From contig CBDCAE010000005.1 in assembly GCA_965213825.1 (NCBI GenBank), forward strand, positions 70,443-134,442: DNA of 64,000 bases, written 5' to 3'. The notes beneath the pieces are model-generated. The model did not search any database and was not told the origin of the DNA. It worked only from the letters and a program-made list of their open reading frames with translations. This DNA is from Capsulimonadaceae bacterium (GTDB lineage Bacteria > Armatimonadota > Armatimonadia > Armatimonadales > Capsulimonadaceae). Shown in pieces: positions 2,067-20,487 of the stretch (its first letter is position 1; each line of letters begins with the position of its first letter). The position numbers and the translations under genes are program-made.

Positions 2067-2207
2067 AGCGGTAGCATCGTAACATACAATTTACGGCCGT
2101 TTGCATTTTTGGATCTGTCCGGCCTCTAAAACATCCTCCGTGATGCCGACTATCTTGGGATGGGAAGACTAGTTTATATCCGCTTCTTCGGCAGATACAC
2201 GCTTTAT

Positions 2208-2423
2208 ATGAGTACGGTCTATAAGTGCCTCGCGGCCTTGATCGTGTGGGCTGTGGGTATCGTGCTCGTTGTTCATTCTGTACCTACCCCGCATCCACCC
2301 CCGCCGCCCGAATGTTACGAAGTTTTCAAGGATAGCCCTCCGGGCTGCACATACAAAGGCCTAACGGTAAGCCAACAATATGACGCAAGAGCGAGCCAGA
2401 AATACTGGAACCTCGGTAAATAA
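2208..2423 (+). CDS. Small hypothetical membrane protein (71 aa from internal ATG)
   Basis: ORF 2160..2423. Hydrophobic CLAALIVWAVGIVLVV followed by a proline run. No recognisable family. Confidence 0.3.
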   Translation: MSTVYKCLAALIVWAVGIVLVVHSVPTPHPPPPPECYEVFKDSPPGCTYKGLTVSQQYDARASQKYWNLGK

Positions 2424-2424
2424 G

Positions 2425-2691
2425 ATGCTGCTTACATTTATAATTCGCCTGGTCGTGTTGGTCTTGGGCACATGGGGACTCATCAGCATAGGAAACTTTG
2501 CTCTCGGCACAAGCAAAGCGGTGTATCAATCAACCCACAACAATCTTTTTGCCGGTGCTACCCTGCTCTTGATATGCGGCGTCGGTTTCTGCTTTCTGGC
2601 ATTCGCAACCTATGCCCTAGCGTTCGGGACTGTGACATTGTTCGGCGCGTTGATGCGCCTGTTCAACAGACTTAGAACGCACTCTGAATGA
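2425..2691 (+). CDS. Small hypothetical membrane protein (88 aa from internal ATG)
   Basis: ORF 2380..2691. ATG 2425 lies 1 nt after the stop of the previous ORF. Three hydrophobic segments. Confidence 0.35.
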   Translation: MLLTFIIRLVVLVLGTWGLISIGNFALGTSKAVYQSTHNNLFAGATLLLICGVGFCFLAFATYALAFGTVTLFGALMRLFNRLRTHSE

Positions 2692-3017
2692 TCGCCGTTG
2701 CGACCGGATTCGCCCGTATCCCTGTCGCTCCGGCTCCGGGGGTGGTGGCGTTCTCTCAACCTCGTTTTGCTTCAGGTAAGTGTTCAACAGTTGCGGGCTC
2801 CTTGCCCTTGCTGTCCCGGTCTTCTCTGCGGCCTTCGGGCAGTTCGGCTAGTTCCCGGTTCAACTCGTCCATCCCATAAAATCTTGATCGGCGCTACGGT
2901 TCGTTGTCAAGGTCAAGTGCAGTGGTCGGCTTCCTGCTGATGCTTGGCTGTTCGGCAAATGCCGAACAGACTCCTGCTCGTAGTTGCACTGCTTCGTCTG
3001 TTGCAGCGCTTCTTCTC

Positions 3018-3026
3018 TGGTATAAT
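3018..3026 (+). promoter_or_regulatory. Extended -10 promoter element TGgTATAAT
   Basis: ctGGTATAAT at 3018-3026, 25 nt upstream of ATG 3052. The identical CTGGTATAAT recurs at 30430-30439. Confidence 0.4.
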
Positions 3027-3051
3027 TTATGAGCCGCTGGGGGGCGGCGCT

Positions 3052-4169
3052 ATGCTCTTCAAGCCACTCGACAAAGACGCCTTCGCTCATGCCGTTCTCC
3101 AGATTGTCCAGACATCGGGCCTCGGCTCTGTGGTGTATGACCCAGAAACATTCTCGCTGAAAGCCGCCGACCGAGAGATCGTCATTCACCTCGGCAACAT
3201 CTTCGCGGAGCACCTTGCCGCAAAGCCCTGGCGGCGCAGCCGAGTTCTTGAAGGCTTCACACGCCATCTACAGGGCGTACTGGCGGCCGTGGAGCCGACG
3301 GCAGATTATGCCAAAACCGCGCTGCGTCCACGTGTTCGTGAGCGCACCTACTTTGAGGTGCAGCGTCTGCGTGACGAGATCGCAGGGACCCAAAGGCCCG
3401 AAATCCTCTTCCGCGAACTCGGCGGCGGGCATCTGGCACTGGAAGTCGTACTGGATCAACCCGACAGCCTGAGAAGCATATCCGTTGATGATCTGAACGA
3501 GTGGGGAATGACCTTTGAGGACGCCGTTCTTATCGCGAATGACAATTTGCTTACTCTTGGGCTGGGCCGCTTCCAGTCGCCGAGGCCAGGGCTGTTCGTA
3601 TCGGCCTGGCACGATGTGTATGATGCGTCGCGTCTGCATCTCGCAGAGATCGTCAGCGGCCTCGCGGTGAAGGGGCGTCCCGTGGCGATGGTGCCGAACC
3701 GGAATAGTCTGATCATTACCGGGGCAGATGACGCCGAAGGACTGTTGGCGATGGCGCGGCTGACGGAAGAAGCGCTGAAACAGCCTCGGCCCATGACAGG
3801 CTACGCATTCCGGCTGGACAACGGCTGGGTGCCGTTCCTGCCGCCGGCGGGTCATCCAGAGTATATCTCGCTGCATCGTTTGTTCGTGCAGACGCTGGCG
3901 GGGATTACGAGGAGCAGAAGGGGCTGCTGGAGGCACTGCACAAGAAGAAAGGCATGGACACTTTTGTTGCCAGCGTCATGGTGATGGAAGATCGAAGCAG
4001 CAAGAATCTGTCGTCGGTCGCGACCTGGGCTGAGGGGGTGGATGCGCTTTTGCCGCGTGTGGACCGCGTTGCGTTTATTGGGGCCGGCACTGCGAATGAC
4101 CCGAATATCCTGGGCATGGCGGATTGGGCGCGGGTTGAAGCGGTTTTGGGGGATCTGCTGGAAGCGTAG
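3052..4169 (+). pseudogene. Hypothetical conserved protein interrupted by a -1 frameshift in a G-run (or sequencing error)
   Basis: The frame of ORF 2944..3984 reads ...EYISLHRLFVQTLAG, then nonsense. The frame of ORF 3954..4169 continues DYEEQKGLLEALHKKKGMDTFVASVMV... from 3900. The junction is GGGG at 3900-3903; one extra G would fuse both parts. Confidence 0.5.
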
Positions 4170-4474
4170 GGGCTGTATCCGGAACGATACAGGGTGCGGG
4201 AGTTCCCGGCGTCGGAGCAGTTAAGTCGGCTGGAACTGGTATAAGAGGTGTTGCTTGTAATGTCTCTTCCCGGTGTTGACAAGAACCAATATCACACTGG
4301 ACAAACTTCAGTAAACAACCATAAAGATTTCCAGATCCCGGATAAAATTTTTAGAACTTCATCAACGATGGGAAGAAGGAATCGGTGAAGGTACAAGCGA
4401 ACATAACGTATATTATCCCTGCCTTTCCATAACAAAACTCCCAAAATAATTCCGTATTCACCCGTGTTGAGCAA

Positions 4475-5980
4475 ATGAATTTTGAAGATCTACCAACGGT
4501 TGGTTACGAAGAAGCAAAGCCAGATGCAGGTGGTGTAGCGCAGGCTTTTGCCAGAATCGGTTACCAACTTGAAGAAGCCTTAGCAGACCTAGTAGACAAC
4601 TCAATCGATGCCGGAGCAGGCAATATCCTGATCCGATTCTATCGCGATTCTAACTCCATCAAACGGATAGTTGTGGTCGATGATGGTCGTGGAATGTCGC
4701 CCACCGAGATGCGACGAGCCATGCAATTTGGCGTACGCCAAAAACACAAAAAGTCAGATCTAGGCAAGTACGGCATGGGTCTGAAAACGGCTTCATTCAG
4801 TCAATGTCGTTCTTTAACTGTCCTCACAAGACATCGAGAAGTATCAACAGGTCGTCGGTGGACTTTATCATCAATTGAAAAAGGTTGGCTTACGGAAAAG
4901 ATTTCTGATGCTGCGACACACAATTTTTTTTTGGGCTTCTGGACTTACTTTGACATCATCCAGCATGGGTCTATCATTGTGTGGGACGAACTTGATCAAT
5001 TCAAAGTTTTAGAGCATGGTTTCGAGGCTGGGCTAACGCGCATTCTGAGACAGATCGACAAGCATCTTGGATTGGTCTTTCATCGTCTTATTAACGAAAG
5101 CAAATGTCAAATCTCGGTAGACACATATAATTACCAAACGGATGCGCCCGGTCCGCAGTTTGTTGTCAAGCCACTCGACCCGTTTTCCTATATACGCACT
5201 GGTAAAACAGGTTACCCAAAGATATTCAAAATGCTATTTTCTGATCTTCCGCCACTCAGGTTGGAGGCTCATATTTGGCCGCCTCAGTCGGTTCTTCCAG
5301 GCTACAAATTGGGTGGAGGAAATGTTGCGGCCCGGCAGGGTTTTTATATATATCGGAACAACCGTCTTATACAAGCAGGTGGCTGGAATGGTTGGCGAGA
5401 AAGCGACTCCGAGCCACATGTTTCCTTGGCACGGATCAAGATTGACATCAACGATCAATATGGAGACGTGTTTCGTTTGAAGGTGCAGAAGTCAGGAACG
5501 GATGTATCTCAGGACTTTCGTAATGCTCTTAGCGTGGTTTCGAGCGGAAAAACAACGCTCACAGACTTTGTTCAGGATGCTGTCAGCACATACAGAAAGT
5601 CGCAGGCGAATCTACGAAGAACGTGCCTTGTTCCTGGAAAGGGCATACTGCCAAAACTTCAGTCCGCAATGAAGTCGGTCCTGGCAGAGAAAAATGACAT
5701 GATTGGAACAATAGACTTTGAATGGAAGCAAATGCCACCAAACATTGTCTTCTATGCTGCTGCCGATGAATGCCGTATTTACTTGAACAGTGAGTATCGT
5801 GAGAAACTATCCCAGAAAACAAGAGCGTCAACAAATGATGCTACTGTTGCAAAGACACTACTCTTCATGCTGTTGCGGGATGAGTTGCAGAGCAGACGGC
5901 AAAGCAAAAAAAGCACAAGAGCAACCGAAGCCCTTAATTCTATATTGTACGCGATAGTAAGCGGAGACCACAATGGCTGA
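4475..5980 (+). CDS. GHKL-superfamily (MORC/MutL-like, HATPase_c_3-type) ATPase, R-M associated
   Basis: Bergerat-fold motifs: EALADLVDNSIDAGA (N box), VVVDDGRGM (G1), LGKYGMGLKTAS (G2). 8-nt overlap (ATGGCTGA) with the next ORF. Confidence 0.85.
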   Translation: MNFEDLPTVGYEEAKPDAGGVAQAFARIGYQLEEALADLVDNSIDAGAGNILIRFYRDSNSIKRIVVVDDGRGMSPTEMRRAMQFGVRQKHKKSDLGKYGMGLKTASFSQCRSLTVLTRHREVSTGRRWTLSSIEKGWLTEKISDAATHNFFLGFWTYFDIIQHGSIIVWDELDQFKVLEHGFEAGLTRILRQIDKHLGLVFHRLINESKCQISVDTYNYQTDAPGPQFVVKPLDPFSYIRTGKTGYPKIFKMLFSDLPPLRLEAHIWPPQSVLPGYKLGGGNVAARQGFYIYRNNRLIQAGGWNGWRESDSEPHVSLARIKIDINDQYGDVFRLKVQKSGTDVSQDFRNALSVVSSGKTTLTDFVQDAVSTYRKSQANLRRTCLVPGKGILPKLQSAMKSVLAEKNDMIGTIDFEWKQMPPNIVFYAAADECRIYLNSEYREKLSQKTRASTNDATVAKTLLFMLLRDELQSRRQSKKSTRATEALNSILYAIVSGDHNG

Positions 5981-6965
5981 GGCAACTAGACACCTGACAT
6001 GGGACAACTTTAACACAATTATCACTGAGGCTATACCAGGGCTTCATCGGGTTACCGGCTCACCTCCGGTTGATCTCTTCGTTGATCCAGAAGGCGCGAG
6101 GATTGGTTTGCGAGTACCGTATCCGTATGAATGTACAGTCCCCCCAAGTCCACTATCAGAAGTGAAAATAGAGCGTATCATGATCGCAGGGGAGGCTTTT
6201 GTTGATATTACAACCGGTAGCAGGCTTCTTTACGCTGAGTTTTATTCGCTAATGATCACTATTGCCAATAAAATTCAAAGTGACAAAATGGATCCCCTTG
6301 TTGCATTCGGGGAAACACTGGACAGTTGGCGGGTCCTGTTGCGATCAGTAGCAGTTCTAACTGAGGACCAGCAACTGGGCCTTCTTGGAGAACTTTGGAT
6401 GCTAGAGCGTCTGCTCATGAACAAAGGACCACGGGCGATACGTTTCTGGGTTGGGCCTCTTGCTGAAGAACACGATTTTCGTCTGACTGATCATGATTTT
6501 GAGGTCAAGTCTACCCGATCGTTACAGCGCGTGCATATTATTAGTAGTCTTCAACAACTGCAAAATGGACTAGGGCGGCGGTTGTTCCTTTTGTCGTTAC
6601 AATATGGTCTAGCACCAACTAACTTATCGCTCCCAAGCGCGGTTCAGAATGTCCGCGCTTTGTTGAGCGGAGATATTGAAGAACTTGCGACCTTCAATGA
6701 CTTGCTCACAAATGGCTCTGGATACCGCGATGAGTACGCAATACATTACCCGGCAACTTATTTTATGAGAGCACAGCCAGTAATCGTGCCGATTGACGTA
6801 TCTTTTCCAAAAATAACACCGTCGACTATAGCCAGCATTCATGATGGCAACCGGATCAGCGATGTGAAATATCGCGTGAATATTGAAGGTATGGGCTTTA
6901 AGGATGGGAGCGATCCATTCTGTTCTATTTTACCAGCGGTGGGAGGAAGTATTGTCAAACTTTAA
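5973..6965 (+). CDS. PD-(D/E)xK motif protein (putative nuclease subunit)
   Basis: EEHDFRLTDHDFEVKSTRS fits D...(D/E)xK. Overlaps both neighbouring ORFs. Confidence 0.7.
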   Translation: MAEATRHLTWDNFNTIITEAIPGLHRVTGSPPVDLFVDPEGARIGLRVPYPYECTVPPSPLSEVKIERIMIAGEAFVDITTGSRLLYAEFYSLMITIANKIQSDKMDPLVAFGETLDSWRVLLRSVAVLTEDQQLGLLGELWMLERLLMNKGPRAIRFWVGPLAEEHDFRLTDHDFEVKSTRSLQRVHIISSLQQLQNGLGRRLFLLSLQYGLAPTNLSLPSAVQNVRALLSGDIEELATFNDLLTNGSGYRDEYAIHYPATYFMRAQPVIVPIDVSFPKITPSTIASIHDGNRISDVKYRVNIEGMGFKDGSDPFCSILPAVGGSIVKL

Positions 6966-9870
6966 CGTATCGACCGTTCTGCAGATTGTAAAGAGTGCTT
7001 TCGGCGGTATGGTGGCAGGACCCACAACTTTAGGTAGAAACCTGGAATTTTTTTCCAGCCAACTTTTGCCCGGCGAGACGTTGACGACGCAGAAGTTAAT
7101 CGATTGGCTCAGGCTTGAAGATGCAAATGATCCCATAAAAGCCGTAGTGAAAAGGCAACTTCAACAATGGGATTTTGAGGGTCATTTGGCGTGGATAGCC
7201 GACACCCTCAAAAACTCGAACAAGCGCAGGCAGCATATATACGACAGTCTTGGAATTGAAGGAGAAGATCGTAATTTCATGGATGATGTATTCCCGCCAT
7301 ACATCATGATCGAGCCTGTTGTCGTCATCGCTGAGGAGCATGAACCATGGTACCAATTATCTGCATCAAGACAAGAGTTCTATTGGAACGCTTATTGCAA
7401 GCAACTTCGGGAAGTAGCAGGTTGGTCTGAGGAAAGTGTACAGGTACTGGCTGATAGCACCGAGAAAGTAGTCGAGCGTATATCAAATCCGGAGCGTGCT
7501 GAAGCCTACCAGGCGAAAGGATTAGTTATCGGCTATGTTCAGAGTGGAAAAACCGCTAACTTCACAGGCGTAATTGCCCGCGCCGCTGATGCTGGCTACA
7601 GGCTGATCATTGTCCTTGCCGGAACCACCAACAATCTTCGCCAGCAAACACAGCGTCGTATTGATAAAGAGTTGGTCGGGATAGAGTTTCTTGAACACGA
7701 ATATGCAAATGATGATGACTATAGCGCGTTTCTGAGTCATGGAACATTGCCCTCGACGATGGGCGCGTTTGATTGGCAACGCCTCACCGGGCCAAACGAG
7801 GATTATCAGGCACTGCGTCAAGGTATCGAGTCGCTTAATTTTCCACGCTTTGATCCGTCACTTCCGTTTTATCATTCCGTCAATCTGCAACATGCAACCG
7901 CACGGATTATGGTGGTGAAGAAGAGCCCAGCAATTTTGAAGAAGGTTGCAGCGGACCTGAAACGGATCAAGGAGCAGAAAAAGGTGCGGATTGGAGATAT
8001 ACCTGCTCTGATTATTGATGATGAATCTGATCAGGCATCAGTAGACACCACCAAACCAAGTCCTCAGCAACGAAAAAAGCGAACGGCTACTAACAGAGCC
8101 ATAGTTGGTCTTTTGGAAGAACTGCCTAGGGCGCAGTATATAGGCTATACTGCTACGCCGTTCGCAAATGTCTTTATCAATCCTGAAGATGCTGCTGATC
8201 TTTTTCCAAAAGATTTTCTTGTTCCACTTCCGCGTCCGAAGGGATACATGGGAGCCAATGATTTCCACGATCTTGAAGCCGAAATTCCTGAAGGGTATCT
8301 ATCAAATGAACGTGCGTTTGTACGCCCTGTCACCGGATCGGATGAGCAGCCAGAAAATCTGCAAAAAGCACTGGACGCCTACGTCCTTTCCGGTGCCATC
8401 AAACTATTTCGCGAGAAGCATGTCCCACAGATCAGGTTCAAGCATCACACTATGCTCGTCCACCACTCGCAGAGCACTGAGACACATGAAACCGTTGCGA
8501 GGACAGTTGATCGCTTGCTAGAAAACTCTGGATACGATGCGGGGGCTGGTCTTCAGCGTCTTCAAAGCCTGTGGACGAATGATTTTCTTCCGATAAGTAA
8601 TGAACGTGAGACTCCTTGGCCTCTCCCGTCAACATTCTCCGAGTTACTGCCGTTTTTAGGGGAATGTCTTCATCGGTTACGTAGTGGTGGTAGATCAGTA
8701 ATTGTGGTCAATGGCGATCATGATGCTCCCGATTTCGACCGGGATCGAATATGGAAAATTCTAGTGGGCGGTGTCAAGTTATCACGCGGTTACACGGTCG
8801 AGGGACTTACAGTTAGTTATTACCGTAGAGTTACGCGTTCTGCGGACACCTTGATGCAGATGGGCAGATGGTTCGGGTTTCGCGAAGGTTATCAGGATCT
8901 AGTCCGCCTGTTCATAGGCACAAATGAGCCTTTAACAAGATACAAAAAAACTAATCTATTCAAAGCATTTGAGGCAGTCTGCCGTGACGAGATGGAATTT
9001 CGTACCGAATTGCAGCGTTACGCGATGCCTAGTGATGGCTCAAAACCTGTAACACCTATGCAGGTGCCTCCTCTCGTGCCTGCCCACCTATTACAACCGA
9101 CGGCAACGAACAAGATGTATAATGCTGTCATCAAGTCACAGAACTTTGGTGGTAAGAATATACAATCGACCTTGGCTCCCTTCAGGGACGAAGACGTGCT
9201 TCACAATGAGACGGCGATGAAGTCACTGCTTCAGAACCGCACATTGAAGATACGATCGCTGAAGGTTAAGACAGAAAAGGAAGCGCTTCAGAACTCTTCC
9301 TTTGTCACAGAAATAGAACCAGATGCGATAATCGAGTTCCTCAAAACATATCGCTGGCTTAACCTTAAGCAAAATTTAGCGTTGCAATTAGAGTTTCTCG
9401 CCGGAAAACATGGCGATCCTGAAATAGACCGCTGGCTTTTCATCGCACCAATAGCAGACACAGACAGAACTTGGACGGTTAATGATGCTGATCTGAATGT
9501 TGTAGAGCGTTCCAGGACAGAGACACCAACAGGAAGATACGGAGTTTATACCACATCGAGAGATGTAGACATTGCCAGACCGCTGGTTGGTCGGCATGGA
9601 GCCACTGAATTTAGTGACGATCTTCAAGAGTTAATTCGCCCGAAACAGGCAGTTCTTCTGTTCTACCCGGTGCGGGACCGCAACGATCCAGAATATGTCA
9701 AAACCGCTGAAGGCCCGAGGGCTTTTGTGACTATGGGTTTCGCACTCATGTTACCAGAAAACAGTATTAAGTCGAAAATAAAATTTGGCGTCAGAGACAG
9801 TAAAAGAAAAGATGAAGTTGTCGTTGAAACAGATGGTCTTCGGGAAGATCTGATAACTGACATTGTTTAG
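6952..9870 (+). CDS. Z1-domain P-loop NTPase (SF2-like)
   Basis: Walker A GYVQSGKTANF, Walker B-like ALIIDDESDQAS, GYTATPFAN, KLSRGYTVEGLTVSYY and LMQMGRWFGFREGY (Z1 hallmark). The longest ORF starts at 6883. TTG 6952, preceded by GGAGG (6942-6946), is the more likely start. Confidence 0.85.
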   Translation: MSNFNVSTVLQIVKSAFGGMVAGPTTLGRNLEFFSSQLLPGETLTTQKLIDWLRLEDANDPIKAVVKRQLQQWDFEGHLAWIADTLKNSNKRRQHIYDSLGIEGEDRNFMDDVFPPYIMIEPVVVIAEEHEPWYQLSASRQEFYWNAYCKQLREVAGWSEESVQVLADSTEKVVERISNPERAEAYQAKGLVIGYVQSGKTANFTGVIARAADAGYRLIIVLAGTTNNLRQQTQRRIDKELVGIEFLEHEYANDDDYSAFLSHGTLPSTMGAFDWQRLTGPNEDYQALRQGIESLNFPRFDPSLPFYHSVNLQHATARIMVVKKSPAILKKVAADLKRIKEQKKVRIGDIPALIIDDESDQASVDTTKPSPQQRKKRTATNRAIVGLLEELPRAQYIGYTATPFANVFINPEDAADLFPKDFLVPLPRPKGYMGANDFHDLEAEIPEGYLSNERAFVRPVTGSDEQPENLQKALDAYVLSGAIKLFREKHVPQIRFKHHTMLVHHSQSTETHETVARTVDRLLENSGYDAGAGLQRLQSLWTNDFLPISNERETPWPLPSTFSELLPFLGECLHRLRSGGRSVIVVNGDHDAPDFDRDRIWKILVGGVKLSRGYTVEGLTVSYYRRVTRSADTLMQMGRWFGFREGYQDLVRLFIGTNEPLTRYKKTNLFKAFEAVCRDEMEFRTELQRYAMPSDGSKPVTPMQVPPLVPAHLLQPTATNKMYNAVIKSQNFGGKNIQSTLAPFRDEDVLHNETAMKSLLQNRTLKIRSLKVKTEKEALQNSSFVTEIEPDAIIEFLKTYRWLNLKQNLALQLEFLAGKHGDPEIDRWLFIAPIADTDRTWTVNDADLNVVERSRTETPTGRYGVYTTSRDVDIARPLVGRHGATEFSDDLQELIRPKQAVLLFYPVRDRNDPEYVKTAEGPRAFVTMGFALMLPENSIKSKIKFGVRDSKRKDEVVVETDGLREDLITDIV

Positions 9871-9874
9871 CAGG

Positions 9875-10576
9875 TCAACGACCAGAATCGCTTTTCCTCT
9901 GGTTCTCACTCTGTGGTTGAATCAGGGCAAAGTAGGCGCAACGATTATCGACAGCAAAAGAACATAAGTTGCATCGGGGGCGAAGCGCAGTACAAACTTT
10001 CGCACCGAAATCCAGGACCGCATAGTGGTAACTCACTGGGTCTGGTGAATACACAACGGCCTGGATTGCTCTTTTTACGTCTGAGCGCCGACGCGCCTCA
10101 CCCTGAATCTTGAGACCGAATATTCTGCCTACAACTCGGACAATATTTGTATCAACCAGAGCGATGTTTTGCCCATCGGCGAAACAACTAATGGCAGCAC
10201 TGGAGTAGTCGCCAATTCCGGGCAATGCTTTAAGTTTCTCCGCGTCAACTGGTAGTTCTCCTCCATATTGGCTGGAAGCCTCTTTAACAAAGTTGACGAA
10301 TTTCTCTGCACGCCATGCTAATCCCAGTGACAACAGCATCCTTTTAACTTCAACAGGATCACCTTCTTTGGCATCGTTTAGAGTTGGATATTTCTTAACG
10401 AAGTCTCGATATACAGGCATGACTTGATCGGCTTTGGTCCTTTGCAACATGAACTCAGATACGGCCACACGATATGGTGTTCTGTTTGTCCTCCAGGGGT
10501 AGTCTCTCTTTCCTTCTTGCCACCAGTCAAGAAGAAGTTTCTGATACAAATAGATGTTTTCTCTGCTTTGATCCAT
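9875..10576 (-). CDS. HhH-GPD / [4Fe-4S] DNA glycosylase of the MutY/Mig type (short form, no NUDIX domain)
   Basis: DYPWRTNRTPYRVAVSEFMLQRTKADQV, LKALPGIGDYSSAAI (HhH), LVDTNIVRVVGR (catalytic Asp position), and C-terminal Cys cluster CTALRPRCNLCSFAVDNRC. ATG 10576 (MDQSRENIY...) overlaps the MTase 3' end by 50 nt. Confidence 0.8.
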   Translation of the reverse strand: MDQSRENIYLYQKLLLDWWQEGKRDYPWRTNRTPYRVAVSEFMLQRTKADQVMPVYRDFVKKYPTLNDAKEGDPVEVKRMLLSLGLAWRAEKFVNFVKEASSQYGGELPVDAEKLKALPGIGDYSSAAISCFADGQNIALVDTNIVRVVGRIFGLKIQGEARRRSDVKRAIQAVVYSPDPVSYHYAVLDFGAKVCTALRPRCNLCSFAVDNRCAYFALIQPQSENQRKSDSGR

Positions 10577-12167
10577 GAATTGTTTCCATGAGATTGTAAA
10601 CAATCTCTGCAATTTGCGATGCGAGCAAAGGGGGAACAGCATTACCAACCTGCTTGTATTGCTGTGTTCGCGATCCCTCGAAGAAGTAATTATCCGGAAA
10701 CGTCTGTAAACGTGCTGCCTCTCTTACCGTCATGCTTCGGCACTGGAGCGGATCGTAGTGTATTGTGTAATGACCATCCTTAGACATATGTGAGACAATA
10801 GTTGTGGATGGCCTTTGCTCAACTTGCACTCGAAAACGATCATCAAAATGGTCAGCAGAAGCGTCTAGAGCCACGTTCTTATGGTTAGGACGCAACGCTT
10901 TTGGAAAATTAGCCATTTTTGGTGAGGACTTGTAGACTTGAGCGAAACAGGCCGCAAAAAGATACCGGTGAAGATCCTCAGCGATATGTGAACGGGCAGT
11001 GTGATTGTAGACGCCTCCGAGACGCATGTCTTCAAACCAATCGGCTCGATAAGATACTTGTGGCTCCCACGGAACGAACTCGCCGCCTGTTGACAATCCC
11101 GCAGGAATAGTGTTAGCAGCATTTTCAATTGTGCATCTGAGATTTTCGATAAATAGGTCTTCGTCGGATTCTGCCAACTGAGCAAACCACGGCTGATCAA
11201 GAATACGTCGTATTGCCGCCCTCCATTCATCATCATTGTCTTCTTGTCGTGAAAGACGACTACGAAGTTTTGGCAGATCGCGCAGAACCCTGCCGGCAGC
11301 AACACGAGAACCATACTTTGTAAGCCCACCAGGAGTTGCGCCTAAATCCTTTCTAACGCCCAGCAGAATAACCCGATGTCGCGCTTGAGGAATGCCATAA
11401 TCTTCAGCCTTGATGATGAAATCAGTAGGCTGAAGATCATTGGGAGACGCCCGATCCATTACAAGCGAAAAAATTTCGTATTCTGTTTTCTTGTCCAGAG
11501 AAATCCCAGGTATTGTGGTTGTCGGTTCATCTGGTCTTAGAAGAGCAACAACTGGCTGTTTTAGGTCTGCAATGATTCTCTCGAATATTGGTTTGCCATC
11601 AACTGTCGCGGATAATATTCCAGTCACATTTTCCATAACGAACACAGAAGGCTGGAAGCGGGCAATAATTCGAAGGTACTCTCGATAAAGAAAATGTCTA
11701 TGGTCTTTGGCGAACTTTTCCGGGTTGCCCGAGCGCATTCTTGACCGTCCTATTGTTGAGTACGCCTGACAGGGGGGGCCGCCGATGAGAACCCAGTCCT
11801 TGTTGGGACTGATCTCTAACCTTCTTTCAATCCAGTGATTGATATTATCATCATCATCGGACCCAAGTTCTGCCAACCTCGCCTCTGTGCGTGAAGCCCT
11901 TGCCTGCACAGGGAACCGATCGAACAGTTCGGCTCTTGAAATTTCGCCTCGCAGATATTTGTAATAATCCGCAGGAACATCCAGGTAGACAAATTGCCGA
12001 TAGAAACTTCGCAGTTCAAGTGTCCGATGTGCATGAGCATCTTTTTCTACCGAAAGTTGAATCTTAAACGATGGGCGTCTGCTTCCGTTCCTCCGATAAC
12101 TCGCGAAACCTTCACCAAGCCCTCCCGGGCCAGCAAAAAGATCTATAACAGGAATGGACGTTCGCAT
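10527..12167 (-). CDS. DNA (cytosine-5)-methyltransferase
   Basis: Motif I VIDLFAGPGGLGEGF, IV GGPPCQAYS, VI VFVMENVTG, VIII PQARHRVILLGV, IX/X RLQTFPDNYFF ... QVGNAVPPLLA. Long variable region between VIII and IX. Confidence 0.95.
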   Translation of the reverse strand: MRTSIPVIDLFAGPGGLGEGFASYRRNGSRRPSFKIQLSVEKDAHAHRTLELRSFYRQFVYLDVPADYYKYLRGEISRAELFDRFPVQARASRTEARLAELGSDDDDNINHWIERRLEISPNKDWVLIGGPPCQAYSTIGRSRMRSGNPEKFAKDHRHFLYREYLRIIARFQPSVFVMENVTGILSATVDGKPIFERIIADLKQPVVALLRPDEPTTTIPGISLDKKTEYEIFSLVMDRASPNDLQPTDFIIKAEDYGIPQARHRVILLGVRKDLGATPGGLTKYGSRVAAGRVLRDLPKLRSRLSRQEDNDDEWRAAIRRILDQPWFAQLAESDEDLFIENLRCTIENAANTIPAGLSTGGEFVPWEPQVSYRADWFEDMRLGGVYNHTARSHIAEDLHRYLFAACFAQVYKSSPKMANFPKALRPNHKNVALDASADHFDDRFRVQVEQRPSTTIVSHMSKDGHYTIHYDPLQCRSMTVREAARLQTFPDNYFFEGSRTQQYKQVGNAVPPLLASQIAEIVYNLMETIHGSKQRKHLFVSETSS

Positions 12168-12619
12168 AAGTTGAAATTATTTTCTCCAGGCATGAATGAC
12201 ACACGAGGGCAGTAGTTTTTACCAATGCTTAGAATGGAGCATTAACGAAAGAACTTTCTTTGCTCCCACCAGTATTAGTCTCAAGGTGCTACCTGGTTTT
12301 GTTCGACAGTGTTGAAAATTATATTGGAGTTGTTGCAGCCAACAAATATGCTAGTCTTGAACCAGCATCCTGATTTATGATTCTGTCACGCCGTCTTTAG
12401 TCATAAATGCGTACAGCCGTCATATTTTGTATCGGGCTTTTCAGACGATGAGGTACGAAACAGGATGATCTTCTGAAGTATCCATGTCTATTATCTCAGA
12501 GGGAAGTCCATCCTTCTGTTTGTCGATCAGGCCAGTCAGTTCTGTCGCTGGTGTCACAGTAATGCCGCCGACAATGCTGTTCTCCCACTCCTCTACCGAT
12601 TTCTCATCGGTTCGTTAAA

Positions 12620-13106: not shown

Positions 13107-13556
13107 TTAAGGCGTAGAAATCTTGCGCCGCGCCGCATCCAGAACTTTCTCAATCTGCGTCCCTGTCAGACTACAGTTCGTGCACACAAGGCGAAGTTCC
13201 TGAAAGAATCCCTCAGACAACCCAAGCGGCTCGGCTCCGGCTTCGCCTGTATGTCGGGCCAGAAGTATGCCTGGCTCCACGGCAATGATCTCCTCGATCG
13301 CAGGTTCTGTGGCCTTGAAGTCGCAGAGCCAGCCGACAATTGCAATGCCCTCCGGCGAGGCTCCCAACGTGCCATCAATGAGATGGCTCACGAGGACCTC
13401 CAGTGGGTTTTCGACGATAGGTGTTACGCTCAAAGATTTACTCCTGGCAAGTTTGGTTCCACTCGCGTAGGTTCGCCAGTTGAAGAGCGCAATCCTGCCG
13501 CGTTCATCCCTCCATCTTTCGGGCTGGGCAGGTGTTTTTGAGCGGGCAAAAGACAC
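13107..13556 (-). CDS. Hypothetical protein
   Basis: 149-aa ORF with a GTG start overlapping the upstream gene by 53 nt. No recognisable motifs. Confidence 0.4.
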   Translation of the reverse strand: MSFARSKTPAQPERWRDERGRIALFNWRTYASGTKLARSKSLSVTPIVENPLEVLVSHLIDGTLGASPEGIAIVGWLCDFKATEPAIEEIIAVEPGILLARHTGEAGAEPLGLSEGFFQELRLVCTNCSLTGTQIEKVLDAARRKISTP

Positions 13557-14295
13557 AACCTTCGCCGGGATTGGGCTGATGCTTCTTATCGGTAAGGGTT
13601 TTGACCGCCGCGTTCATCAGAACAGCATGAATACCTTTAAGGTCGCGGTCTTCAACTCTTTCCATTGTGACCCGGCCGTCAGCAACAAACAGAAACTCTA
13701 CGCAAAAGCGCTTGAAGCCAAGGTCCTTGTACTCACGTTTCGCCAATGCCAACTGGATGTACACCTTACGCAAATCAATACCTGGCGGGTCTTCCCCAAT
13801 AGTAGTTTTGATTTCGCGGACACAGAGCCGATCCGGCTCTGAGGCTCGGACCAACGTCTGATCCAGACGGCAGGAAAATAATCCGATGACTTCACTCTCG
13901 TGCCAGATTGGTCCTTCGAGCGGCAGTTCTAAATCTAAAATGCCGGCTACGGCTTCGGGATCGGACTCATCGTTTCCAATGATCGCGCAAACCGAGGAGA
14001 TAACACGTTGCGTCGCGTCCCTCTTATCGACGCCTTCCGGCCAGCGGCCCTTGAAAACGGCAGTACGCGCCCAGGCTTCCAGGTGATCAACGCAGGGCCG
14101 ATCGCCAACCCGATTTTGGTAGGCCAACTTCAGAGTTTCGTGAGTAGCAATGCCATGCGAAACTGACTCGGCTCGGGGCCTGCTCGGCCACAACTTCTTG
14201 TTGCGGAGAGTGTCCCACCGGTAACCACATTCAGTATCGGCGAGGGCCGATGGTGTAATACGAGGCAATTCCGCGAAACGGGCGGTGTCGAGCAT
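13504..14295 (-). CDS. Cas4/RecB-like PD-(D/E)xK exonuclease with Fe-S cysteines
   Basis: N-terminal Cys (DTECGYRW), ILDLELPLEG, CVREIKTT (ExK), YIQLALAKREY, C-terminal CVFCPLKNTC. Confidence 0.7.
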   Translation of the reverse strand: MLDTARFAELPRITPSALADTECGYRWDTLRNKKLWPSRPRAESVSHGIATHETLKLAYQNRVGDRPCVDHLEAWARTAVFKGRWPEGVDKRDATQRVISSVCAIIGNDESDPEAVAGILDLELPLEGPIWHESEVIGLFSCRLDQTLVRASEPDRLCVREIKTTIGEDPPGIDLRKVYIQLALAKREYKDLGFKRFCVEFLFVADGRVTMERVEDRDLKGIHAVLMNAAVKTLTDKKHQPNPGEGCVFCPLKNTCPARKMEG

Positions 14296-19141: not shown

Positions 19142-20296
19142 CTACTTCGTGTACACCCGCTTCCGGCTAGGCTTCACGGCCGCAGCCGCTTTCGCAGCGC
19201 GTTCGGCCTCTCGGGCTTGGTAGTTCGCCAGAACACCGGCGACAGGGGCGGCAGCGTCGTGAACTGCCTTCAACGCCTCGACTTCATCGTGCGAATAAAT
19301 GTCATGCGCTTGATCAGTCCGGTGTCCCATGATTTTTTTGGACATATCTTTATCCACGACGTCATGTTTTGATGAAGAATAATGGCGCAAGTCGTGCCGG
19401 CGAATCACGCGTTCAATGCCAGCACGGACGCGGCGTTTATTCCACTGTCGCCCCCAGGAACCTGGGTCGATTTTCCCCCCGGATTCGCTGACAAAAATGA
19501 AGTCATTACCAGTTTGCATTTTTAGGCGCATTTCCAACCACGGTTCGAAGGCCACGTCGCAATATTCCTTTGACAAGAACGCAAGCCGGTCGTCGCCATT
19601 TTTCGTTTTCTCCAACAAGATCGTTCGCCGCCCCTGGTCGTCACGCGGAGACAGGTGGCACAGACGCGCAGAGAAAAACTCCCCCACCCGCATTCCTGTC
19701 TCAGCCAGTCCCAATGTCGCAGCAATCTCGCGAACCCGGAAGTAACGCCGCGCATCCAGGGACTTGAAGCGCGACCCGCCAGTGGCTTCGTCAGCCCAGT
19801 CTTCCTCGATCTGTCTCACAATTGCGTCAAGTTCATGTTCGGCGACAGAGCGTTTTTCTGACTTGTCGCAGATTTCCCACGCTTCAGCGCGTTCCAGAAG
19901 GTCTTTCTTGAAAAGTTCGGCGCGGTAGGCCCACGCAAACACCGCCTTTGTCTTGACCTCCCGGTGCTTCACGCTGCGATCCTTCATTCCCCGAGCCTTG
20001 TATTCGCGCAGGCACTCCCAGAAATTTCGGGCATTAACCCCGGCAGGCCTGATTCCCTGTCGCGTATACCATTCTCCAACGTCTTCGAGCGTATTGCGAA
20101 CGTCGTACAGATGCTTACGCGTCCGGATTTTGTTTTTGTTTTTGAGGTACTCGTCGTACCCGGAAATTAACCCGTCCCAGCCAATCGTTTGACCGAGGCT
20201 GAACTGGCCTTCCTCTTCTTCTGCTTGTTGCCAGACGTATGACATTTCTCTCTCCCTGTGCTGTTCTGGGCTGCTGACCACATGCTGTTCGTCCAT
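19142..20296 (-). CDS. int: Tyrosine recombinase / phage-type integrase
   Basis: LAETGMRVGEF (Arg I), RRHDLRHYSSS (H-x-x-R), GHRTDQAHDIYSH (His/Tyr). Adjacent to the tRNA 3' end. Confidence 0.9.
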   Translation of the reverse strand: MDEQHVVSSPEQHREREMSYVWQQAEEEEGQFSLGQTIGWDGLISGYDEYLKNKNKIRTRKHLYDVRNTLEDVGEWYTRQGIRPAGVNARNFWECLREYKARGMKDRSVKHREVKTKAVFAWAYRAELFKKDLLERAEAWEICDKSEKRSVAEHELDAIVRQIEEDWADEATGGSRFKSLDARRYFRVREIAATLGLAETGMRVGEFFSARLCHLSPRDDQGRRTILLEKTKNGDDRLAFLSKEYCDVAFEPWLEMRLKMQTGNDFIFVSESGGKIDPGSWGRQWNKRRVRAGIERVIRRHDLRHYSSSKHDVVDKDMSKKIMGHRTDQAHDIYSHDEVEALKAVHDAAAPVAGVLANYQAREAERAAKAAAAVKPSRKRVYTK

Positions 20297-20415: not shown

Positions 20416-20487
20416 AGCCGACACGCGGATTCGAACCGCGGACCTGCTGTTTACGAAACAGCTGCTCTACCACTGAGCCATGTCGGC
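20416..20487 (-). tRNA. tRNA-Thr (anticodon CGU)
   Basis: Reverse complement: GCCGACA-TG-GCTC-AGTGGTA-GAGC-A-GCTGT-TTCGTAA-ACAGC-AGGTC-CGCGG-TTCGAAT-CCGCG-TGTCGGC-T. Full cloverleaf. CCA is not encoded. Confidence 0.9.

Follow-up and report, generated by a model that had tools for sequence, protein, structure and literature searches.

Operons in which a MORC or paraMORC ATPase stands beside an SFII helicase (Z1) and a new protein of the restriction endonuclease (RE) fold were predicted as "type 3" by Iyer, Abhiman, and Aravind in 2008, who proposed DNA looping from the recognition site to the cleavage site (PMC2292703). The core of Z1, DUF4420, and C5 methylase was found again by Miller et al. 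in 2022 as Type I, an unvalidated putative defence system (PMC9523054), and both of these descriptions are prediction-only and give no mechanism. The E. coli version of mzaABCDE, a system reported by Gao et al. in 2020, protected E. coli 10^3- to 10^4-fold against T4(C) and against T4 carrying 5-hydroxymethylcytosine (hmC) [T4(hmC)] without growth arrest; purified MzaD cut DNA, and the system has no methylase and has an AIPR protein, MzaE (bioRxiv 10.1101/2022.06.16.496414). In CglI, the H subunit, a DEAD-Z1 protein, translocates on double-stranded DNA and activates a PLD-family nuclease for cleavage (PMC4267653, PMC5861437), and Mig.MthI of Methanobacterium thermoautotrophicum (1KEA) acts on T:G mismatches that result from 5-methylcytosine deamination (PMC2714593). 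Here we describe a five-gene cassette in a 64,000-nucleotide stretch of contig CBDCAE010000005.1 from a Capsulimonadaceae bacterium (assembly GCA_965213825.1, positions 70,443 to 134,442), the whole of which is called the window below. Judged from sequence comparison, the cassette is probably a horizontally acquired, ATP-dependent, multisubunit restriction-modification (R-M) system of the MORC/Z1/DUF4420 type, with a cognate C5 methylase and a Mig-like repair glycosylase. Its features, with lengths in amino acids (aa) and coordinates counted from the first letter of the window, are as follows.

4475..5980, plus strand: MORC-like GHKL ATPase, 501 aa (Pfam HATPase_c_3, 3.6e-32)
5973..6965, plus strand: putative DUF4420 PD-(D/E)XK nuclease, 330 aa (Pfam DUF4420, 1e-39)
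6952..9870, plus strand: DEAD-Z1 protein resembling superfamily 2 (SF2) translocases, 972 aa (Pfam Z1, 4e-50)
9184..9867, plus strand: C-terminal variable domain of Z1 (aa ~745-972), candidate target-recognition module (low conservation, swapping in relatives)
9875..10576 (open reading frame open to TTG 10648), minus strand: short Mig-like HhH-GPD/[4Fe-4S] DNA glycosylase, 233 aa (Pfam HhH-GPD, 3e-07)
10527..12167, minus strand: C5 cytosine DNA methyltransferase, 546 aa (Pfam DNA_methylase, 2.3e-43; TIGR00675)
4283..12187, no strand: low-GC block, apparently acquired, with all five genes (composition and alignment to contig L004)

All five open reading frames (ORFs) were confirmed (4475-5980, 5973-6965, and 6883/6952-9870 on the plus strand; 9875-10648 and 10527-12167 on the minus strand). 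The overlaps, the junction, and the GGAGG/TTG 6952 start that an earlier note on this DNA had described were all present at the positions it gave, and each motif that it had quoted for the GHKL, DUF4420, and Z1 proteins was located at a defined position. The GHKL and DUF4420 ORFs overlapped by 8 nucleotides (nt), with the junction ATGGCTGA at 5973-5980, and the Z1 gene started within the 3' end of the DUF4420 gene, where GGAGG was followed by TTG 6952, an overlap of 14 nt. This start matched the public gene calls and yields a protein of 972 aa, so that the length of 970 aa given in the earlier note had to be corrected, while its motifs and start for Z1 were retained. The stop codons of the Z1 and glycosylase genes were convergent and 4 nt apart. 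With a start at ATG 10576, as in the public call of 233 aa, the glycosylase gene overlapped the 3' end of the methylase gene by 50 nt, and because of this overlap the two are probably translationally coupled.

The five genes lay in a block (4283-12187) with a GC content of 46.6%, compared to 56% upstream and 58.9% downstream, which bore out the earlier description of the block as richer in AT than its flanks. The metagenomic contig L004 carried the same five genes as one block, with 84% identity in Z1; positions 6007-15237 of L004 aligned with 2939-12187 of the window at 81.6% nucleotide identity, and the left flank was common to both. The right edge of the block (12187) coincided with the end of similarity to L004, 20 bp past the methylase start codon. 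The cassette was compact (~7.9 kb), the island had space for five genes only, and the catalytic motifs were intact in all five. The ORFs, their overlaps, the motifs, and the low GC content together were far past what is expected by chance.

The profile searches that the earlier note had suggested were run, and the matches to HATPase_c_3, DUF4420, Z1, HhH-GPD, and DNA_methylase were all well above the Pfam cut-offs. The GHKL ATPase had intact boxes [N-box EALADLVDNSIDAG, aa 34-47; G1 DDGRGM, aa 69-74; G2 GKYGMGLK, aa 97-104], and its closest solved relatives by sequence were human MORC2 and MORC4 (E ~1e-06), ahead of MutL and PMS. In the DUF4420 protein, the catalytic residues were of the E-D-ExK pattern (E140, D168, and E177-x-K179), and E140, H167, D168, E177, and K179 were invariant across 27 homologues. 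The core of this protein was preceded by a beta-rich N-terminal domain (aa 20-81) and a helical domain (aa 84-158), and its AlphaFold2 model had a predicted local distance difference test (pLDDT) score of 88.8. No significant relative of DUF4420 was found in the PDB by sequence search, and the best Foldseek match of the model had an E value of 0.04, with template modelling (TM) scores of at most 0.21. In the DUF4420-containing clade to which the window belongs, the N terminus was among the most variable regions, with a mean identity of 27%.

The Z1 protein carried Walker A (GYVQSGKT, aa 194-201), Walker B (DDESD, aa 356-360), and TAT (aa 400-402) motifs, as well as the Z1 hallmark DTLMQMGRWFGFR at aa 632-644, of which DTLMQMGRWFG (aa 632-642) fits the pattern DThhQXuRhFG. 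Its best PADLOC matches were to MzaC (3.9e-73) and to a "Type II helicase domain protein" (1e-33). A PDB sequence search with the whole protein gave no match at E values up to 1. Residues ~145-740 of an AlphaFold2 model built with 45 homologues (pLDDT, 80.5) matched SF2 motors with two RecA domains, namely eIF4AIII, HsdR of EcoR124I, ZorD, FANCM, ISWI, and DrmAB, which agrees with the published conclusion that DEAD-Z1 proteins are helicase-like motors.

On the opposite strand, the methylase scored 135 bits against TIGR00675 (cut-off, 100.65), and its top PADLOC model was DrmMII (1.7e-95). Motifs I (FAGPGG), IV (GPPCQ), VI (ENV), VIII (QARHR), IX (TVREAARLQTFPD), and X (GNAVPP) were all found, with a long variable region separating motifs VIII and IX. 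The neighboring glycosylase had been called MutY-like in the earlier note, a label that we replace with Mig-like; the protein is most likely a substitute for Vsr and not an adenine glycosylase. Its PDB matches were MutY catalytic domains (5e-37) and, over the full length, Mig.MthI (1.4e-33). Its key residues are E41, A49, Y124, D142, and Y185, with a four-cysteine cluster at aa 195-213. It consists of the catalytic domain alone, with no C-terminal NUDIX-like 8-oxoguanine recognition domain, and it scored 160 bits against the MutY equivalog TIGR01084, for which the cut-off is 286.5. E. coli MutY reads 37-EVMLQQTQV-45 and 182-QAMMD-186, and the Mig.MthI equivalents are E42, A50, Y126, and L187 (PMC2714593). 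At these positions the window glycosylase reads EFMLQRTKA and YAVLD, so that the adenine determinants V45 and Q182 (E. coli numbering) are replaced by Ala49 and Tyr185; E41, A49, Y124, and D142 line up with the Mig residues, and the equivalent of Leu187 is Tyr. This residue mapping indicated that the enzyme is nearly collinear with Mig and lacks the adenine determinants of MutY. Its identity as a MutY adenine glycosylase was made unlikely by the single domain, the TIGR01084 score under the cut-off, and the replacement of both determinants.

An HhH-GPD gene was found in only the window and L004 among 85 loci (window included), and most of the others had Vsr beside the methylase. No Vsr was found in the window, where the glycosylase gene overlaps the methylase gene in the place at which most relatives carry Vsr. 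Because it occupies the Vsr position of other cassettes, the glycosylase is probably a T:G repair enzyme for 5-methylcytosine deamination. Its closest homologues (37-81% identity) were mostly short (182-235 aa), and in five of the six places that were read the short homologue was immediately downstream of a C5 methylase. From these comparisons, the clade probably serves as a T/U:G repair partner of C5 methylases and is thus a functional analogue of Vsr. One of the five places (L085, 1-6684) was a DISARM-like locus that encoded a large DEAD/Helicase_C protein, an MZB (DUF1998) protein, a C5 methylase, and the short Mig-like glycosylase, adjoined by N6/N4 methylase and transposase genes. The sixth (L090, 1-6669) was an operon of GHKL, Z1 (925 aa), DUF4420, AIPR, and a short HhH-GPD glycosylase, a Mza-like arrangement, and the stretch of contig read there showed no C5 methylase. 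The window glycosylase also matched a REBASE-derived PADLOC model, "REase_II / Type II nicking endonuclease" (221 positions; 4e-34), and with that label automated pipelines may call a simple Type II R-M system of methylase and glycosylase and overlook the restriction trio.

The Z1 family comprised at least 7,828 protein clusters at an E value of ≤1e-20, with full-length relatives at 45-52% identity in many phyla, and in a pattern scan of GTDB species-representative genomes a relative was encoded in 592 of the 600 candidate stretches listed. Genomic context was surveyed in 84 comparator loci with hidden Markov models built iteratively from the ORFs of the loci; in 64 of them, the flanks reached at least 6 kb in each direction. 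The sample was rich in Streptomyces, so it is not phylogenetically independent, and it also included Chloroflexota, Nitrospira, Alphaproteobacteria, Massilia, and plasmids of Arthrobacter and Rhodovastum. The GHKL gene was directly upstream of Z1 in 81 of the 84 related loci. Co-occurrence of trio homologues with methyltransferases had been set beforehand, in the earlier note, as a test on which its R-M proposal depended, and the proposal withstood it: a C5 methylase was present within 6 kb in 52 of the 64 full-flank loci (81%). Of the 64, 40 (63%) had Vsr and 28 had DUF4420. The median gap between the trio and the C5 methylase was 420 bp (n = 68 loci with a C5 methylase), and the linkage was seen across Actinomycetota, Chloroflexota, Nitrospirota, and Pseudomonadota and in several gene orders. 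The plasmid examples from Arthrobacter and Rhodovastum are annotated as such, and the Rhodovastum cassette has Vsr. The five genes travel as a single low-GC block, and the linkage of their relatives to C5 methylases spans phyla.

Several other arrangements were observed among the relatives. About half of the related loci (~34 actinobacterial loci, L009-L075, e.g., L018 8247-15489) were GHKL-Z1-Vsr-methylase(-methylase) operons that had no DUF4420 gene, and the GHKL and Z1 proteins of these operons had no extra domain of nuclease size. Two loci (L028 and L083) had a second pair of Z1 and DUF4420 genes nearby. In L084 (1106-7407), a relative of the trio was directly downstream of DUF1156 and HEPN_Swt1-DUF499 genes, a defence-island setting, and a C5 methylase was absent within 6 kb. 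A megablast search of the island against 5,426 E. coli genomes gave no match.

In the mechanism that we propose for the cassette, the C5 methylase would mark a specific host sequence, and the Mig-like glycosylase would take T (or U) out of T:G mismatches that arise by 5-methylcytosine deamination, which is the presumed job of Vsr in most sister cassettes. The three translationally coupled proteins of the plus strand would form the restriction enzyme. Unmethylated sites on incoming DNA would be recognized, most likely by the swappable C-terminal domain of Z1, and the variable N-terminal domain of DUF4420 may contribute to site recognition. The DEAD-Z1 motor is expected to hydrolyze ATP and to translocate or loop double-stranded DNA, like the H subunit of CglI, and a dimer of the MORC-like GHKL protein could serve as a clamp, gated by ATP, for assembly or licensing of the complex, with the DUF4420 PD-(D/E)XK subunit as the predicted cutter of DNA.

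The proposed role of the Z1 C terminus derives from its pattern of variation. In the window's DUF4420-containing clade, this domain was the least conserved part of the protein, with a mean identity of 29%, compared to 58% for the motor. Pairs of actinobacterial Z1 proteins were 85-97% identical through the motor, and identity then fell sharply to ~35-49%; the maximum likelihood change point was at window-equivalent residues 731-759, the linker from the Z1 domain to the C-terminal domain, in 42 of 42 such pairs. The identity of the C-terminal domain rose with that of the methylase (Spearman coefficient, 0.76; n = 72 actinobacterial pairs with motor identity of ≥85%, which are not independent), and the values for the Z1 N terminus and the motor in the same pairs were -0.02 and 0.09, respectively. 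C-terminal types also agreed with methylase types (adjusted Rand index, 0.39; permutation P value, ~2e-4), likewise for pairs that are not independent. The domain had no invariant acidic or lysine residues and is therefore not a nuclease, and a search of its profile against the PDB gave no sequence relative. The C-terminal ~230 residues of Z1 thus appear as a swapped module that tracks the methylase, a candidate specificity domain in the actinobacterial relatives; in other R-M enzymes, target-recognition domains are shuffled in a similar way. ORF calls in the high-GC DNA of the Streptomyces loci were too noisy for region profiles of the methylase to refine this test.

The tight linkage to a methylase might be that of two independent neighbors, a methylation-independent, Mza-like defence trio and, apart from it, a solitary C5 methylase that has the Mig-like glycosylase as its repair partner. 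mzaABCDE defends without a methylase, and 9 of the 64 full-flank loci had neither a methylase nor Vsr within 6 kb, the neighbors checked there being unrelated genes. The trio and the methylase/glycosylase pair are transcribed separately because they are convergent, and short Mig-like glycosylases pair with C5 methylases elsewhere, including in the DISARM-like locus. However, we consider this arrangement unlikely, given the nearby C5 methylase in 81% of the loci, at a median gap of 420 bp, in several phyla and gene orders, the inheritance of the whole block together in L004, and the co-variation of the Z1 C-terminal module with the methylase; moreover, the window has no MzaA and no AIPR protein of the MzaE kind, and its scores are far under the Mza cut-offs.

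The linkage would also be expected if GHKL and Z1 made up a repair machine that processes the nicks or abasic sites left by Vsr or the glycosylase at deaminated 5-methylcytosine, as a self-contained very-short-patch repair module carried along with the methylase. MutL and MORC are relatives of the GHKL protein, and E. coli MutL stimulates Vsr and recruits UvrD. This MutL-Vsr/UvrD parallel was also drawn by Iyer et al. in 2008 (PMC2292703), and the half of the related loci that are GHKL-Z1-Vsr-methylase operons without DUF4420 would suit such a role. Yet the DUF4420 protein of the window has invariant catalytic residues and is translationally coupled between both ATPases, Mza is antiphage in the absence of methylase and Vsr and has a nuclease that cuts DNA, the only characterized Z1 motor, that of CglI, serves restriction, and Vsr and Mig accompany the C5 methylases of ordinary R-M systems as well. 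A repair role is for these reasons highly improbable in our view. To a Type IV-like, modification-dependent enzyme directed against foreign methylated or hypermodified DNA, with a neighboring methylase of nontarget specificity, we assign the lowest probability of any reading, a very small one. Eukaryotic MORC proteins do act in methylation-linked pathways, and Mza restricts hmC-carrying T4. Against this, Mza is no weaker against unmodified T4(C) than against T4(hmC) and does less well against glucosylated T4 (bioRxiv 10.1101/2022.06.16.496414), Pfam revealed no known modified-base reader domain, and a C5 methylase and a deamination-repair gene that are linked this tightly and this widely mark a system protected by methylation.

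Several points weigh against the R-M reading that we favor. About half of the related loci have no DUF4420, so the nuclease role does not extend to every member of the family. Since Mza works without a methylase and ~15-20% of the related loci have no C5 methylase within 6 kb, such an enzyme may not be strictly required by the trio. Neither a promoter nor a regulator could be assigned to the cassette: the promoter scan gave 14 promoter-like sites, compared to 12.8 in shuffled sequence, and the terminator-like sites (16, compared to a shuffled mean of 8.6 with a standard deviation of 3.0) included none linked to a gene end, so that no promoter or terminator was assigned. The correlation of the Z1 C terminus with the methylase is fed in part by physical linkage, because in those actinobacterial loci the 3' end of Z1 adjoins the genes for Vsr and the methylase. 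Within the DUF4420 clade of the window itself, phylogeny dominates the co-variation of protein regions with the methylase, and the partial correlation for the C terminus was weak (0.29), although still the highest of ten regions. Locus L031 was an outlier, in that its Z1 C-terminal domain was 81-90% identical to those of L073, L018, and L043, whereas both neighboring C5 methylases were only ~43-45% identical; it counters the link between C terminus and methylase unless its divergent methylases have a common specificity. Finally, we infer restriction, methylation specificity, and complex formation alike, for the cassette and for its close relatives.

Beyond the cassette, a tRNA-Thr(CGT) gene (20416-20487, minus strand) was directly followed by a tyrosine integrase gene (19142-20296, minus strand), and beyond these lay housekeeping genes (Mur-ligase-like, pseudouridine synthase, and lgt). 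A tRNA-linked integrative island may carry the R-M cassette as distal cargo, but a search of 1-20300 for an att repeat of the tRNA-Thr 3' end (any 18-mer, with at most 2 mismatches) gave none. An ORF at 13504-14295 (minus strand) encoded a 263-aa PDDEXK_1 (Cas4/RecB-like) exonuclease with a weak match to PADLOC Cas4 and a match to a PHROG exonuclease, and it sat among ORFs without hits, with the cassette on one side and the integrase on the other. Directly past the methylase start, where similarity to L004 ends at 12187, the segment 12188-12900 had a low GC content (~45%) and no ORF of ≥100 aa; a promoter region is one possible explanation, and what remains of other cargo is another. On the left, ~870 bp of the window (2067-2939) was missing from the otherwise collinear L004; the two small ORFs in this segment (2160-2423 and 2380-2691) look hydrophobic and matched no family.

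The large Z1 family contains the prokaryotic relatives of the eukaryotic MORC proteins, and the cassette is useful for experiments in being compact, in having intact catalytic motifs, and in having a natural variant (84% Z1 identity) for comparison. Two leads arise from the analysis: the Z1 C-terminal domain as a specificity module, and the short Mig-like glycosylases as a second, non-Vsr answer to 5-methylcytosine deamination in bacterial R-M and DISARM-like loci. It is possible, although we hold this only tentatively and would sooner bet against it, that such cassettes make up a distinct class of ATP-dependent R-M systems outside Types I-IV, with recognition by a swappable Z1 C terminus and a MORC-type GHKL clamp that licenses a separate PD-(D/E)XK nuclease. 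If so, they would offer a tractable bacterial model for the coupling of a MORC ATPase to the state of DNA methylation.

The closest comparison by protein family is with Mza. MzaB, MzaC, and MzaD were the best PADLOC/NCBIfam matches of the GHKL, Z1, and DUF4420 proteins, respectively, but the NCBIfam scores of the window proteins were 165 bits for MzaB (equivalog cut-off, 850), 298 bits for MzaC (cut-off, 1500), and 94.6 bits, or ~95, for MzaD (cut-off, 420). The gene order in the window is B-D-C, and the window has a C5 methylase and a glycosylase, neither of which is found in Mza. No match to AIPR, MzaA, or MzaE was found in the five island proteins (Pfam, NCBIfam, and PADLOC) or in the flanking ORFs (Pfam and PADLOC). 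By sequence, the trio thus groups as distant, methylase-linked relatives of Mza and not as members of it. CglI and NgoAVII share with the window a C5 methylase and a DEAD-Z1 helicase-like subunit. In these enzymes, cleavage requires that this subunit translocate on double-stranded DNA at the expense of ATP, and they are the sole biochemical precedent for such a motor. However, the R subunit of CglI is a PLD-family nuclease with its own DNA-recognition domain, whereas no PLD protein is present in the cassette, CglI has no GHKL ATPase and no DUF4420, and its H subunit is shorter than the window Z1. Among other comparators, BsuMI (B. subtilis ydiR/ydiS/ydjA) was rejected as an instance of the same trio, the literature showing a McrBC/LlaI-like system, and MANTIS and VcSduA were rejected as unrelated systems by their papers.

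Mig.MthI resembles the window glycosylase in size (~220-230 aa), in consisting of an HhH-GPD/iron-sulfur catalytic domain only, and in being encoded beside a C5 methylase, with the genes overlapping in the window. The Mig.MthI gene lies on plasmid pFV1 beside the MthTI R-M system. The window enzyme differs in having Tyr185 at the position of Mig Leu187, in being bacterial, and in its linkage to a multisubunit, ATP-dependent system. As for the proposal in the earlier note that the cassette is a poorly characterized defence system, our literature search found no paper on the mechanism of a GHKL + Z1 + DUF4420 complex, and to that extent the proposal held; its novelty is lowered by the prior work on the 2008 and 2022 predictions, mzaABCDE, and CglI. 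Indeed, the type 3 operons of Iyer et al. and the system of Miller et al. have the same parts as the window: a GHKL ATPase with intact N, G1, and G2 boxes beside a helicase, the DThhQXuRhFG motif in that helicase (here DTLMQMGRWFG), an E-D-ExK protein (DUF4420), and a neighboring cytosine methylase with a deamination-repair gene. They differ in that the repair gene of the window encodes a Mig-like HhH-GPD glycosylase and not Vsr, which is frequent but not obligatory in such systems. The cassette is therefore of the type predicted in 2008 and not a new kind of system, and its sole, modest variation is the glycosylase that replaces Vsr.

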